Source: Minisyncoccota bacterium
Lineage (GTDB): Bacteria > Patescibacteriota > Minisyncoccia > Phycocordibacterales > WO2-35-19
NCBI GenBank assembly: GCA_036517255.1
Contig: DATDXE010000004.1
Location: 30,543 to 94,542, forward strand
Direction of reading: 5' to 3'
Length of the DNA: 64,000 nt
The notes below the pieces were generated by a model. That model was not told the DNA's origin. It was given only the letters and a program-made list of their open reading frames with translations, and made no database searches. Of this stretch, positions 1,153 to 42,275 are shown one piece after another. Position 1 is the first letter of the stretch, and each line of letters opens with the position of its first letter. Made by a program: the position numbers and the translations under genes.

Positions 1153-2439
1153 ATGCTAAAAAACACCATAATAAAGCAAAAAGGAGACCGAGATAGGCTC
1201 ATGTCTCTTCCATACGTAGAACGTACACAAGAGATAAGAGCTCAAAAGTGGATGTCTTCAGATTTGATAAAAGTTATTCTCGGACCCCGACGAGCAGGAA
1301 AATCGGTCTTTGCTTTGATGTTGCTTAAAGATCAGTCTTTCGCCTATTTTAATTTCGATGATGAATCACTCCCTGGTGAGGAAAAAATAGATCTCGATGA
1401 ACTTCTTTCAGAATTAAAACAGGTCTACGGTGATACAAAATATATTTTCTTTGATGAAATACAAAACCTTCCAAATTGGGAATTGTTTGTAAACCGTCTT
1501 CATCGTTCCGGATACAATCTGGTCCTCACCGGTTCTAATGCCAGCCTTCTTTCAAAAGAACTGGCTACGCATCTTACTGGTAGACATATTCCGATAGAGA
1601 TACTACCTTTTAGTTTCCAGGAGTTTTTAAAAGCTAAGAGTTATGAACTTGATGCGGACAAACTAGCTCTACCTGATGAAAAGGCAAAGCTGTTTAGTTA
1701 TCTAACTCAGTACATGACGAATGGCGGATACCCTGAAGTTGTCACAAAAGATGTGGACCCTCGAGGATACTTGGATGTACTGTTCGATGCTGTGCTATTT
1801 AAGGACGTCATAAAAAGACACCGAGTTAAGTTTTCAAAGCAAATAGATAACCTAGGATCGTATTTGATAAACAATGTTTCAAATCAATACACCGCAAGAA
1901 AGCTTCGTGATGTATTGCAATTTAAAAGCGATGTAACCGTAGCAAAGTATCTCGATTATTTGATAGAGGCATATTTGTTGTTCTCTCTCGATCGTCACTC
2001 AAGTAAAGCAAGTTCCCGAATACAGTCTGCTAAAAAAACGTATGTGATAGACAACGGCCTTGTTACTGCTAAAGCGGTCCAACACTCCCCTAACACAGGA
2101 AAGCTTATGGAGAACTTGGTATTTACCGAACTCGTCAAAAAAGGTAATGAACCGAATCGTGAGGTGTTCTATTACAAAACTAGAAATGATAGAGAGATAG
2201 ACTTTGTTATAAAAAATGGACATGAAGTCGTAGAACTCATACAGGTAACATATGACGTTACCAATCCTGACGTCGAAGAACGTGAAGTCAAAGCCCTCGT
2301 GGAAGCCGGACAGGAATTGAATGTGAATAAACTCACAATCCTTACATGGAATGAAAAAAGGGAGGTAAAAAAAGGTGAAGTCACAATAGTATTTAGACCT
2401 CTGTATGAGTGGCTACTTGAAGTAAACAAAGAAAATTAA
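1153..2439 (+). CDS. AAA+ ATPase with C-terminal DUF4143-like domain
   Basis: ATG at 1153; Walker A GPRRAGKS, Walker B IFFDEIQ; architecture of the widespread AAA_14/DUF4143 ATPase family. Confidence 0.7.
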   Translation: MLKNTIIKQKGDRDRLMSLPYVERTQEIRAQKWMSSDLIKVILGPRRAGKSVFALMLLKDQSFAYFNFDDESLPGEEKIDLDELLSELKQVYGDTKYIFFDEIQNLPNWELFVNRLHRSGYNLVLTGSNASLLSKELATHLTGRHIPIEILPFSFQEFLKAKSYELDADKLALPDEKAKLFSYLTQYMTNGGYPEVVTKDVDPRGYLDVLFDAVLFKDVIKRHRVKFSKQIDNLGSYLINNVSNQYTARKLRDVLQFKSDVTVAKYLDYLIEAYLLFSLDRHSSKASSRIQSAKKTYVIDNGLVTAKAVQHSPNTGKLMENLVFTELVKKGNEPNREVFYYKTRNDREIDFVIKNGHEVVELIQVTYDVTNPDVEEREVKALVEAGQELNVNKLTILTWNEKREVKKGEVTIVFRPLYEWLLEVNKEN

Positions 2440-2593: not shown

Positions 2594-2701
2594 TTTGCAT
2601 TTATTCGGACTTAGACTTTAAGGGTCCAAAAATAATGCACCATATTTTATTTAAATTTCCTTGCTCCGGGAGTAGGGATCGAACCTACGACCAATCGCTT
2701 A

Positions 2702-3261
2702 CATTTTGTCTTCTATTACTAGAAGTATGGACTATATCATCCCCATATATTCAAAATCGAACACTTAGGGGCGAGGCGCTTCGTACCAACAACATTGCTG
2801 GAACTACTCTCTTGCGAGATAGTCTCTACACCTTTCCCTTGATTACTCTCGGGACTTGGCTCGGGATTGCCCCTTAGGGGTTTCCCCGAATTCACCTCGT
2901 TTTTCAACCCAAATTTCTTCGGGAAGCTGCGTGATGCCGTCATGTACTTCCATATGACAATTTGCGCAAATCAAAACACATTTATCTATTTCTTTGCGTA
3001 TTTTTTCCCAAGATCGAGTTAAACCTCTTAAGGACAAGCCAAAATCTTTTTTAGCTGGATCCACATGATGAAAACTCAAAGCTCTTGAGCATTTATTGTA
3101 GCCACATATAATACACTTATTGCCTTTATAAGCTCTCGCCATTTCACGTAAATTTTTTCTTCTACGTTTAACAGCCATTCGCATATATTCAGCACGGTCG
3201 GCATAAGTTCTTTTTTCTTTCCTGGTATACATATTATAAGTATACCGCAGAACTTATCGAC
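2702..3261 (-). other. group I self-splicing intron in tRNA-Asn anticodon loop (between nt 35 and 36)
   Basis: 5' exon ends in U, intron ends in G (AAAAUG|); 3' part carries GUAGAGACUAUC (R-like) and GAUAUAGUCC (S-like) elements that can form P7; ORF in the 5' peripheral region. Confidence 0.75.
2843..3232 (-). CDS. intron-encoded HNH homing endonuclease
   Basis: 129 aa; CIICGYNKC...HHVDPAKK...CANCHMEVH (HNH His-Me finger with two CxxC pairs); starts 29 nt after the 5' splice site. Confidence 0.8.
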   Translation of the reverse strand: MYTRKEKRTYADRAEYMRMAVKRRRKNLREMARAYKGNKCIICGYNKCSRALSFHHVDPAKKDFGLSLRGLTRSWEKIRKEIDKCVLICANCHMEVHDGITQLPEEIWVEKRGEFGETPKGQSRAKSRE

Positions 3262-3454
3262 ACAGGCGATCGCTCTACCGCTGAGCTATCCCGGAGCATG
3301 AAAATCTAAAACATATTGAATTATCAACGAACCAAATCAGTTTATCAGAAAAAGGAGATGAGGCAAGATTTTTAGAGTTATGCACTTAGATACAGAAATG
3401 ATATTGACGCTATTTTATAAAGGAGTAACATTTTCCATCAGGAGGCAGTAAAGT

Positions 3455-3739: not shown

Positions 3740-3766
3740 GGGGGCCTAGTTAGGCCCCCCTGTTAT
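3740..3766. terminator. hairpin between convergent genes
   Basis: GGGGGCC-tagtta-GGCCCCC at 3740-3759 followed by T-rich tract; overlaps stop of the minus-strand gene. Confidence 0.45.
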
Positions 3767-4313
3767 TTGCCGACCGTTGTGGAAGCGGCCAGCGATCTTT
3801 TACAGTCTCCTTTGCGTTCGGTTTCTTGTTGAGCTTCGCCTCACGCTCGGCATCAGCGTTAGCGAGAAGTTGCTCTATCGTCGTCAGCCTTTGTACTTCA
3901 GCCTTGTGCAAAGGCTGACGAGCAAGTGGCTGGCGTCCTCGCGCCCTATCGAGCTCATCGAAATTTTTGCGAAGCTCTTCTTTTCTTTTCAGCTCCTGTA
4001 TACTCCGAGCTTCTCCCTCGAAATACAATTTGAGGTGGAGAGCCGCCACGTCGTAAGCTTCAGGAAACTTCTCCTTCAGCTCAATAAGGCTGATCGGCAG
4101 ATGGTGAGGATTCGCATCCCCATTCTCCACCGAGCTGATGATGATCGCTCTCGCTAGGCGAAGACCAAAGAGGATAACGAGCTCCCCTCCTCCAACACAA
4201 CCTTCGGCATGTGGGAACAACCTTGTGTACCTAGCTCTGCGTGAACACACAGTGCAAGTGTACTCAAAAAAAGTAGTGAGATCCCGGTAGGCGGGATCGT
4301 AAATCGCTTTCAT
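3750..4313 (-). CDS. hypothetical Cys/His-rich protein (187 aa) in G+C-rich cassette
   Basis: start chosen at internal ATG 4313 (MKAIYDPAYRDL...) preceded by AAAGGTGG; the ORF-track start at 4382 has no RBS; CTVCSRR...H...C possible zinc site. Confidence 0.45.
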   Translation of the reverse strand: MKAIYDPAYRDLTTFFEYTCTVCSRRARYTRLFPHAEGCVGGGELVILFGLRLARAIIISSVENGDANPHHLPISLIELKEKFPEAYDVAALHLKLYFEGEARSIQELKRKEELRKNFDELDRARGRQPLARQPLHKAEVQRLTTIEQLLANADAEREAKLNKKPNAKETVKDRWPLPQRSANNRGA

Positions 4314-4477
4314 ACGTAAACCACCTTTCCAAGAATAATTTGGTACTTCTCTGTCACCTATTCTAATTCCTACTAGCAACAAAAGTCAATGAAAAAAGAG
4401 TGAATATACTTTATTAATAGAGTGTGTTACTCTTATTACATAAGCTTCCCTCTGGGGGATTTTTTATTGAAATTTTT

Positions 4478-41613: not shown

Positions 41614-41686
41614 GCTGGGATAGCTCAGTTGGTAGAGCATTCCCCTGAAGAGGGAAGGGTCGCCGGTTCGACCCCGGCTCCCAGCA
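41614..41686 (+). tRNA. tRNA-Phe(GAA)
   Basis: GCTGGGA-TA-GCTC-AGTTGGTA-GAGC-A-TTCCC-CTGAAGA-GGGAA-GGGTC-GCCGG-TTCGACC-CCGGC-TCCCAGC-A. Confidence 0.9.
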
Positions 41687-41706
41687 CACAATTAAATATT
41701 GGAAAT

Positions 41707-41779
41707 CCGCTCATAGCTCAGCTGGTAGAGCAGCTCCCTCTTAAGGAGACGGTCCCAGGTTCGATTCCTGGTGAGCGGA
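41707..41779 (+). tRNA. tRNA-Lys(CUU)
   Basis: CCGCTCA-TA-GCTC-AGCTGGTA-GAGC-A-GCTCC-CTCTTAA-GGAGA-CGGTC-CCAGG-TTCGATT-CCTGG-TGAGCGG-A; C1:G72, one mismatch in anticodon stem. Confidence 0.8.
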
Positions 41780-41790
41780 CTGCGGATATT

Positions 41791-41871
41791 GGGCAGGTGG
41801 TGAAATGGTATACACGCCAGTTTTAGGAACTGGTGCCGCAAGGCATGGAGGTTCAAGTCCTCTCCTGCCCA
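41791..41871 (+). tRNA. tRNA-Leu(UAG)
   Basis: GGGCAGG..CCAGT-TTTAGGA-ACTGG, long variable arm TGCCGCAAGGCAT, GGAGG-TTCAAGT-CCTCT-CCTGCCC-A. Confidence 0.85.
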
Positions 41872-41911
41872 CAAAAGTTTGAAAAATAATCCGCATTTGG
41901 TATAATGTCAC

Positions 41912-42275
41912 AGGTTTTCATTCCAAACGATAGCTCTGCATTTTATATGCGGAGAGGAAAGTCCGAACACTCACTCTTTTACTAGAGAAGAGTAGCGGGT
42001 AACGCCCGTCGTCCGCGAGGATAGAGATGCGAACAGAGACGAGTCTCCAAAGTAGCTTGCATCGCAAGGTACAAAAAAAGGAGAGTGAAACGGCAAAATT
42101 CTTACTTGAGTGCAAGGCCGTACACGAAATTTTATAGTCCCCGCCTCACGGCGGATCGTTAAAATTTCGTGAGTGCCGCTTGAGTCCTTGAGTAATCAAG
42201 GGCCTAGATAAATTATCGTTACGCTTACCAACGAGGTAGGTGGAACAGAATTCGGCTTATAAGAATGAAAATGAG
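41912..42275 (+). ncRNA. rnpB: RNase P RNA (bacterial type A, reduced)
   Basis: GGAAAGTCCGAACAC (CR-I/P4 5' strand) and ACAGAATTCGGCTTA (CR-V/P4 3' strand) with compensatory CGAAC/UUCGG change relative to E. coli CGGGC/CCCGG; GAGTGAAACGGC (CR-II-like); P1 GGUUUUCAUUC/GAAUGAAAAU; TGgTATAAT promoter at 41899-41906. Confidence 0.8.

Follow-up and report, generated by a model that had tools for sequence, protein, structure and literature searches.

A group I intron that interrupts the gene for tRNA-Asn(GUU) was found on the minus strand of a 64-kb stretch of contig DATDXE010000004.1 (the window, 64,000 nucleotides, numbered from its first letter), which comes from a draft metagenome-assembled genome (MAG) of Candidatus Paceibacterota, within the Patescibacteria or candidate phyla radiation (CPR). 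The intron lies between tRNA nucleotides 35 and 36, is IA-like, and carries a gene for an HNH endonuclease in the loop of its first helix, P1; the evidence given below makes it very probable that it is functional and of the mobile type. The class is already published, and the window locus is a further, unannotated member of it. Three proteins encoded in the window are identical to the Candidatus Paceibacterota MAG proteins HEY4515665, HEY4515666 and HEY4515668, and copies identical to the window locus recur in several independent metagenome assemblies, including Rifle aquifer contigs.

The interrupted tRNA-Asn gene and its splice junction

On the minus strand, the 5' exon UCCGGGAUAGCUCAGCGGUAGAGCGAUCGCCUGU (34 nt, 3295-3262) and the 3' exon UAAGCGAUUGGUCGUAGGUUCGAUCCCUACUCCCGGAG (38 nt, 2701-2664) are separated by an intron of 560 nt (3261-2702), whose first bases are GUCGAU and whose last bases are AAAAUG. 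Once joined, the exons form a 72-nt cloverleaf that ARAGORN identifies as tRNA-Asn(GUU), with a U1-A72 pair, a G73 discriminator and CUGUUAA as its anticodon loop. With introns allowed, ARAGORN reports this tRNA-Asn as i(35,560), from the region alone as well as from the whole window; default ARAGORN and the Rfam tRNA model both overlook the interrupted gene. An earlier note, made from the letters of this DNA alone, had proposed the two tRNA halves with their U1:A72 pair, G73 and 560-nt insert, and these were confirmed by a check of the sequence and by ARAGORN, including the intron-aware search which the note had recommended. The insert matches the Rfam group I intron family (RF00028, Intron_gpI) over the full model (1-253), from 2997 to 2709 on the minus strand, with a score of 76.6 bits (gathering score 50) and E=1.1e-17; this was another of the recommended checks, and it agrees with the proposed nature of the insert.

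All eight possible splice registers of the anticodon loop were tried, and only 35/36 gives a U at position -1 together with a G at the intron's 3' end, as the earlier note had argued. Relatives were collected by scanning one genome per species with the HNH protein, which gave 46 loci (L001-L046), all from Patescibacteria except for two distant matches. The tRNA-Asn(GUU) of 32 relatives, each a separate species-level genome, is split at the identical junction, with CUGU at the end of the exon, G as the last intron base and UAA at the start of the 3' exon. Four relatives (L026, L031, L038 and L046) show short introns of 253-317 nt without an open reading frame (ORF), and the presence of the ORF is thus polymorphic among homologous tRNA-Asn introns. 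Furthermore, L029 has an intronless tRNA-Asn allele whose anticodon arm is identical to the predicted spliced product of the window's tRNA-Asn.

The locus could also be read as a tRNA-Thr(UGU) gene with its intron at 33/34, the junction being moved by two nucleotides. ARAGORN and tFind often make this call for such loci: ARAGORN labels many of the relatives Thr(UGU) 33/34, that is Thr(tgt) i(33,...), or His(GUG). The relatives labelled as threonine end their introns in ...AAGUG, and hence have a G in the shifted register too, and U33 satisfies the rule for position -1, in the window included. In the window, however, the shifted register (register 2) ends the intron in A and not in G, and both the His(GUG) and the Thr(UGU) registers are ruled out there by the combined rule for position -1 and the intron-terminal guanosine (omega-G). 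The guide sequence described below pairs the 5' G of its GCAG with U35 and its A with U33, which puts the wobble at 35, and the tRNA body (U1-A72, G73) matches the intact tRNA-Asn of L029. In addition, the sequenced spliced product of a homologue has the 35/36 junction (Nakagawa et al., mSystems 2026, PMC13011429), and the 2-nt register artefact behind the threonine labels has already been described in the literature. We consider a tRNA-Thr(UGU) gene extremely improbable, and the locus is treated in what follows as tRNA-Asn(GUU).

The 3' CCA is not encoded by the window's tRNA-Asn gene, in which G73 is followed by CAA (2655-2663, minus strand), so CCA must be added post-transcriptionally. In the available part of Table S3 of PMC13011429, the tRNA-Asn genes of Saccharimonadia encode CCA and those of Paceibacteria do not.

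Secondary structure and covariation of the ribozyme

Thirty-three intron cores (the window and 32 relatives; alignment A1) were aligned from the guide sequence to the terminal G, and pairs were counted on an explicit structure comprising P2, P3, P4, P5, P6, P6a, P7 (a pseudoknot), P7.1, P7.2, P8 and P9. Standard pairs occupy 94.8% of the cells, compared with 35-48% after sliding of the 3' partners by 1-3 columns, although the pairing structure was drawn from the window's sequence and the share of paired cells is therefore inflated. The counts of compensatory changes are independent of that: 34 of the 53 pairs show compensatory changes on both sides, the cells with such changes number 362 against 33-78 in the slid controls, and none of 500 shuffles (0/500) reached the values obtained with the real alignment. 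In the 33 introns P7 (GACUA/UAGUC) and P6 do not vary, and the window intron keeps every invariant position of the alignment. The two strands of P7 lie within an R-like element (GUAGAGACUAUC, 2829-2818) and an S-like element (GAUAUAGUCC, 2738-2729), both of which the earlier note had correctly picked out as able to form this helix. P7.1 and P7.2, placed between P7 and the 3' strand of P3, typify subgroup IA, and the window intron is IA-like.

The short introns without an ORF locate the internal guide sequence. In these, a conserved GCAGCUUCC is found only 6-14 nt downstream of the 5' splice site, and its window counterpart, ACGCAGCUUCCC, lies at intron nucleotides 330-341 (window 2932-2921), where it immediately follows the last HNH motif. 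The closeness of GCAGC to the splice site in the ORF-less relatives thus identifies 2932-2927 as the guide sequence and places the endonuclease gene in the P1 loop, which in the window intron is about 330 nt long. Intron nucleotide 1 and the base 5' of GCAG pair in 33/33 introns and covary (G-C in 31, A-U in one and C-G in one), and a mini-construct with the ORF deleted folds as precisely the proposed P1 and P2. Other candidates were rejected: the "P1/P2" of the Rfam alignment, at 2997-2960, is HNH coding sequence unable to pair with the splice site, and the guide candidates near the 5' end of the intron (CUGCGG and CCAGG) provide no U.G wobble at U35.

The earlier note had placed the ribozyme core at 2702-2842, downstream of the ORF. 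The segment from the 3' strand of P6a to P9 is indeed there, and the HNH gene is within the intron; the guide sequence and P2-P6, however, are found at 2932-2843, inside the ORF, and the order is not an ORF followed by a core, since the P1 loop houses the ORF, which extends over the ribozyme's 5' half.

With this anatomy, the pre-tRNA would fold into a P1-P9 ribozyme in which exon nucleotides C32-U35 and intron nucleotides G1-U2 pair with the guide ACGCAG, U35 being held in a U.G wobble. An external guanosine would attack after U35, the terminal G2702 would next occupy the G-binding site in P7, and ligation of the exons would produce the CUGUUAA anticodon loop. We infer the splicing of the window's own copy from its anatomy and from the homologue tested in vitro. 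The dependence of this tRNA-Asn on self-splicing, which the earlier note had put forward, is likewise probable from the covariance model match, the splice register, the covariation, the P1 wobble, the intronless L029 allele and the spliced homologue.

The HNH endonuclease gene in the P1 loop

The ORF starts 29 nt past the 5' splice site and shows no frameshift or premature stop. Its 129-aa product, labelled only "hypothetical protein" in the MAG annotation, matches the Pfam HNH family PF01844 with 22.8 bits (cut-off 21.4), which upholds the earlier designation as an HNH endonuclease, and its best match among the PHROG HNH families is phrog_2255 (E=5.6e-29). The search for homologues, also proposed beforehand, gave more than 700 at 66-88% identity, nearly all of them from Patescibacteria. 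The window's protein keeps all of the residues that are invariant across 45 homologues (30/30), among them C40, C43, H55, H56, C89, N91, C92, H93 and H97. The AlphaFold (AF2) model has a mean predicted local distance difference test (pLDDT) score of 79 and is confident over a basic N-terminal helix and the HNH core, with strand-strand-helix elements at residues 52-56, 85-89 and 90-97, respectively; pLDDT drops to 68, 58 and 44 across residues 101-129, which are encoded by P2-P6. A sequence search of the PDB gave nothing relevant, the best match (E=0.49) being to cytochrome c nitrite reductase via CxxCH motifs, with McrA at E=0.93.

The HNH frame of the relatives always crosses the guide sequence, which is read as ACG CAG CUU CC (Thr-Gln-Leu-Pro), and stops 24-120 nt beyond it, often at a UAG made by the 3' strand of P2. 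Counted from where the guide sequence starts, the window ORF continues for 90 nt to its stop in the P6a loop, deeper into the ribozyme than in most relatives. We concluded that the functional HNH protein ends at about residue 104 and that the last ~27 residues are incidental read-through of the ribozyme. As the last codons of the ORF are the guide sequence and P2-P6, translation and folding of the ribozyme should be mutually exclusive on one RNA.

Outside the Patescibacteria, homologues with longer N-terminal extensions were found in L043 (1246-1917, Pyrinomonadaceae, 55% identity) and L044 (1291-1794, Solirubrobacterales, 44% identity). The L043 copy abuts a cluster of 10 tRNA genes, the second of which is an intact tRNA-Asn(GUU).

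A box of the form TGGTATA(C/A)T is found in 37 of 43 loci, typically 6 nt before the ATG or GTG, and alike in intron-borne and free-standing HNH genes; the window version is CGGTATACT (3247-3239). The box is also the 5' arm of a hairpin, GGUAUAC (3246-3240) with GUAUACC (3230-3224), with a folding energy of -10.9 kcal/mol (z=-4.1 in relation to shuffled controls). It fits an extended -10 element whose transcript begins at or next to the start codon, and may be the promoter of a near-leaderless mRNA. On the pre-tRNA the hairpin would hide the start codon and keep ribosomes off the ribozyme, and transcripts from the internal promoter, without the 5' arm, would be translated. The ORFs of T4 introns reportedly have a comparable arrangement, described by Gott et al. 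in 1988, in which a hairpin contains the ORF's own promoter and, on precursor transcripts, masks the translation start. The P1 loop of the window intron carries the HNH cassette, complete with a -10-like box of its own and the hairpin that covers the start codon, and the frame continues into the P6a loop. The most likely target of the protein is the intronless tRNA-Asn gene, whose cleavage would drive homing of the intron.

Several observations weigh against a functional, mobile-type intron. No convincing complementarity for P10 (guide strand with the 3' exon UAAGCG) was found beside the guide sequence, either in the window or in the relatives; some group I introns have a weak P10 or can do without it. 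A Foldseek search of the PDB with the HNH model gave no significant match (best E=0.49), its top matches being HNH nucleases (Cap5, Cas9 HNH and Gme HNH), and no NCBIfam model matches the HNH protein. The "TG" that extends the -10 box of most relatives is "CG" in the window, where autonomous expression of the ORF may be weaker. Finally, the statement of the earlier note that this is the only tRNA-Asn of the window holds, since ARAGORN finds no second one even in intron-aware mode, and its scope is 64 kb of the genome.

With the examination confined to these 64 kb, the locus might be a decaying pseudogene, namely a dead intron in a disused tRNA-Asn gene whose intact copy lies elsewhere in the genome. 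The cloverleaf, all helices of the ribozyme with the invariant and nearly invariant core positions, and the full HNH ORF are intact, which argues that the window locus is not a decayed copy, and identical copies of it occur in the independent metagenome assemblies mentioned above. Furthermore, it is rare for an interrupted and an uninterrupted gene with one and the same anticodon to occur together in a genome (Nakagawa et al., PMC13011429). A pseudogene is very unlikely on these grounds, and the locus is best regarded as a working tRNA-Asn gene with a functional intron.

The intron might also splice while its HNH protein has ceased to act in homing, either because it is decaying or because it has another role, such as in RNA folding; the intron would then be inherited only vertically. 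A cycle of gain, decay and loss is expected of homing-endonuclease genes, and the lost TG of the extended -10 box in the window, an ORF tail that is incidental read-through and the existence of ORF-less relatives all fit such a stage. Against this, ongoing purifying selection is indicated by the more than 700 homologues at 66-88% identity and by the 30 invariant residues, among which are the metal-binding and catalytic positions without exception, and the window's copy has an undisturbed frame. In addition, we know of no maturase activity for HNH proteins of this type. An inactive HNH protein is thus unlikely, and an HNH protein that still promotes homing is preferred.

Free-standing HNH cassettes beside tRNA-Asn genes

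The HNH gene is also found outside introns. Free-standing HNH cassettes lie directly upstream (about 14-60 nt) of a tRNA-Asn with an ORF-less 35/36 intron in L017, L018, L020 and L031, directly downstream of such a gene in L038, and divergent from it in L026. The cassette of L029 adjoins an intronless tRNA-Asn, L030 has no tRNA-Asn within 1.5 kb of its cassette, and L022, a locus of the free-standing type, ends at the end of its contig. None of the free-standing copies has the guide-encoded "TQLP" C-terminus, and they are scattered over a neighbor-joining tree of the HNH proteins (96 aa, no support values). Decayed 5' halves of tRNA genes before free-standing HNH genes were looked for in L017, L020, L022, L030 and L031, and only a 19-nt D-arm-like match in L017 was found, with none in the other four.

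The sequences suggest repeated moves of HNH between free-standing and intron-borne states, and trans-acting (collaborative) homing. A bolder proposal, which we offer tentatively and which may well prove wrong, is that HNH is a self-contained cassette, with its extended -10 promoter and start-hiding hairpin, that shuttles repeatedly between sites flanking tRNA-Asn and the P1 loop of the 35/36 intron. In that case, many of the "ORF-less" tRNA-Asn introns of Patescibacteria would be mobilised in trans by an adjoining free-standing HNH, and the view in print, that a want of endonuclease genes leaves these introns largely immobile, would have to be revised. In the window, promoter and hairpin would then also keep translation through the guide sequence and half of the ribozyme apart from splicing.

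Features of the interrupted tRNA-Asn locus in the window, in the direction of transcription, and free-standing HNH loci of relatives (named by locus)
Feature	Coordinates	Strand	Evidence
tRNA-Asn(GUU) 5' exon, nt 1-35, position 17 absent, ends CUGU	3262-3295	-	ARAGORN; same exon end in 33 introns
P1 5' strand CUGU/GU: exon C32 U33 G34 U35 and intron G1 U2	3260-3265	-	Pairing with ACGCAG
Group I intron, 560 nt, IA-like, at tRNA position 35/36	2702-3261	-	Rfam RF00028; ARAGORN i(35,560); covariation
ORF-start element: cGGUAUACU (-10-like TATACT, 3244-3239) and 7-bp hairpin enclosing AUG	3224-3247	-	37 of 43 loci
HNH homing-endonuclease ORF, 129 aa, ATG at 3232, TAA at 2845-2843; from the P1 loop through guide sequence and P2-P5 into the P6a loop	2843-3232	-	PF01844; phrog_2255
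P1 3' strand, internal guide sequence ACGCAG, with U35.G wobble at G2930; ORF codons Thr-Gln	2927-2932	-	GCAGC invariant in 33/33
P2 hairpin CCCGAA-GAAA-UUUGGG, inside ORF	2908-2923	-	5/6 pairs compensatory
P3 5' strand CGAGGUG, inside ORF, partner 2778-2772	2893-2899	-	97.8% paired; 3 pairs compensatory
P4-P5 domain, inside ORF: P4 2889-2884/2866-2861, P5 2880-2877/2873-2870	2861-2889	-	8/10 pairs compensatory
P6 (GCC/GGU, invariant) and P6a (UCCC/GGGA); ORF stop in P6a loop	2830-2860	-	Covariation; P6a 4/4 compensatory
P7 5' strand GACUA, within R-like element, partner 2734-2730	2820-2824	-	Invariant in 33/33
P7.1 (2819-2808, GCAA loop) and P7.2 (2804-2783)	2783-2819	-	6/8 pairs compensatory
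P3 3' strand CGCCUCG	2772-2778	-	P3 covariation
P8 hairpin CCCC ... GGGG	2741-2771	-	Helix of covariation table
P7 3' strand UAGUC, within S-like element	2730-2734	-	Invariant
P9 hairpin CUUCUA-GUAA-UAGAAG	2710-2725	-	5/6 pairs compensatory
Terminal guanosine (omega-G) of intron	2702	-	G in 33/33 introns
tRNA-Asn(GUU) 3' exon, nt 36-73, begins UAA	2664-2701	-	ARAGORN; register check
Free-standing HNH locus, L017	1459-2145		
Free-standing HNH locus, L018			
Free-standing HNH locus, L020	1450-2165		
Free-standing HNH locus, L031	~1480-2276		
Free-standing HNH locus, L038	1040-1744		
Free-standing HNH locus, L026	577-1357		
Free-standing HNH locus, L029	1336-1824		
Free-standing HNH locus, L030	1426-1821		

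Other features of the window and of related introns

The window also shows a tRNA-Phe/Lys/Leu cluster (41614-41872, plus strand) and, within about 40 nt downstream of it, an RNase P RNA of bacterial class A (41915-42275, 141.8 bits). According to the Rfam alignment, the latter has several deletions in relation to the consensus (P12 and P13/14 regions), as expected of reduced CPR RNAs. Two neighbouring ORFs on the minus strand are called as genes in independent assemblies: one encodes 210 aa without a Pfam match (3750-4382), and the other 184 aa with a weak, sub-threshold match to the Rv2179c-like 3'-5' exoribonuclease domain (401-955).

The introns of L024 (~1960-2070, in the P7.2 loop) and L031 (~2000-2110, in the P6 loop) have in common an insert of about 80-110 nt, 81% identical, which is absent from the window. 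Its layout is ...GGGGRAACGAACGGCGGATTGC...AATGAG, a hairpin with compensatory changes, and GARTGA...CCGGCAAGT. No Rfam family was found for it, and an exact-pattern scan of metagenome contigs gave two unrelated matches only. The insert could be a portable structured RNA module.

Comparison with known systems

Standard tRNA finders miss this tRNA-Asn and the HNH protein is annotated as hypothetical, so an essential tRNA would seem to be missing from the MAG, and its completeness score would be lower. The locus adds one case to the Patescibacteria with tiny genomes that retain self-splicing introns in single-copy essential tRNA genes. An ORF in the P1 loop that runs through the guide sequence, the promoter-like box with its hairpin, and the free-standing cassettes beside tRNA-Asn are modest extensions and not a new kind of element, and the details of the HNH cassette make the spread of these introns directly testable.

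The preprint by Williams (2020; bioRxiv 10.1101/2020.01.27.920355) raises the known classes of intron-interrupted bacterial tRNAs to 21, and the class cited from it by Nakagawa et al. as "Asn.4Ug" corresponds to the Patescibacterial tRNA-Asn introns at 35/36. Host phylum and the 35/36 interruption of tRNA-Asn(GUU) place the window locus in this class. Nakagawa et al. (PMC13011429; preprint July 2025, 10.1101/2025.07.03.662931) analysed 95 complete Patescibacteria genomes and found group I introns at 35/36 in 15 tRNA-Asn(GUU) and three tRNA-Asp(GUC) genes. In their in vitro experiments, which included an omega-G-to-C control, one tRNA-Asn intron and one tRNA-Asp intron each spliced themselves out precisely, and of the 28 introns at 35/36 they assigned 25 to IA. 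Four of the tRNA-Asn introns encode HNH (PF01844) endonucleases. The novelty of the 35/36 site that the earlier note had implied is thus not upheld, the class being in print together with its HNH-bearing Patescibacteria tRNA-Asn introns.

Among the sequences available from Table S3 of that paper, the window core has 70% identity to the spliced tRNA-Asn intron of GCA_016700035.1 and 74% to an ORF-less intron from Paceibacteria, with all junction motifs in common in both cases, and the published HNH-bearing intron of GCA_016699425.1 likewise holds the HNH cassette of the window in its P1 loop, with an ORF that again runs through the guide sequence. The text of PMC13011429 makes no mention of the position of the ORF in the P1 loop, of an overlap between ORF and ribozyme, or of endonuclease genes outside introns. 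The window intron shares with the Asn.4Ug introns and those of Nakagawa et al. the tRNA and its anticodon, the 35/36 junction, U(-1), omega-G, the phylum, an IA-type core and the place of the HNH cassette. It differs from the latter set in nothing essential, coming from a draft Paceibacterota MAG outside the 95 complete genomes.

Classical bacterial tRNA group I introns likewise have a ribozyme in the anticodon loop, U(-1) and omega-G, and use loop nucleotides as the exon strand of P1. They differ in site, being found at 34/35 in tRNA-Leu(UAA) of cyanobacteria and plastids, at 33/34 in tRNA-fMet, and at 36/37 in tRNA-Arg(CCU) and in the tRNA-Ile of Azoarcus. They also differ in structural subgroup, 81% of bacterial tRNA introns being IC whereas the window intron shows the IA features P7.1 and P7.2, and most of them lack an ORF.

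The introns of the phage T4 genes td, nrdB and nrdD (sunY) and other phage introns (with I-TevI, I-TevIII or I-HmuI) resemble the window intron in combining an IA ribozyme with a free-standing-type endonuclease gene in a peripheral loop. As in the ORFs of T4 introns, the window has a -10-like box together with a 7-bp hairpin that encloses the AUG, here with putative roles as promoter and as cover of the start codon. Unlike the phage introns, which interrupt protein-coding genes, that of the window has a tRNA gene as its host, and its ORF, which overlaps the guide sequence, lies in the P1 loop instead of P6 or P9. The window's HNH protein also differs from the phage-intron endonucleases in being small, with a functional core of about 100 aa, and in having no significant match to a solved structure.

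Free-standing homing endonucleases are said to act with ORF-less introns, an arrangement called "collaborative homing" that was reportedly described by Bonocora and Shub in 2009 and by Zeng et al. in 2009. The free-standing HNH genes beside tRNA-Asn genes with ORF-less introns (L017, L018, L020, L031, L038 and L026), and that beside the intronless tRNA-Asn of L029, resemble this arrangement; the window locus differs from it in that its HNH gene lies inside the intron.

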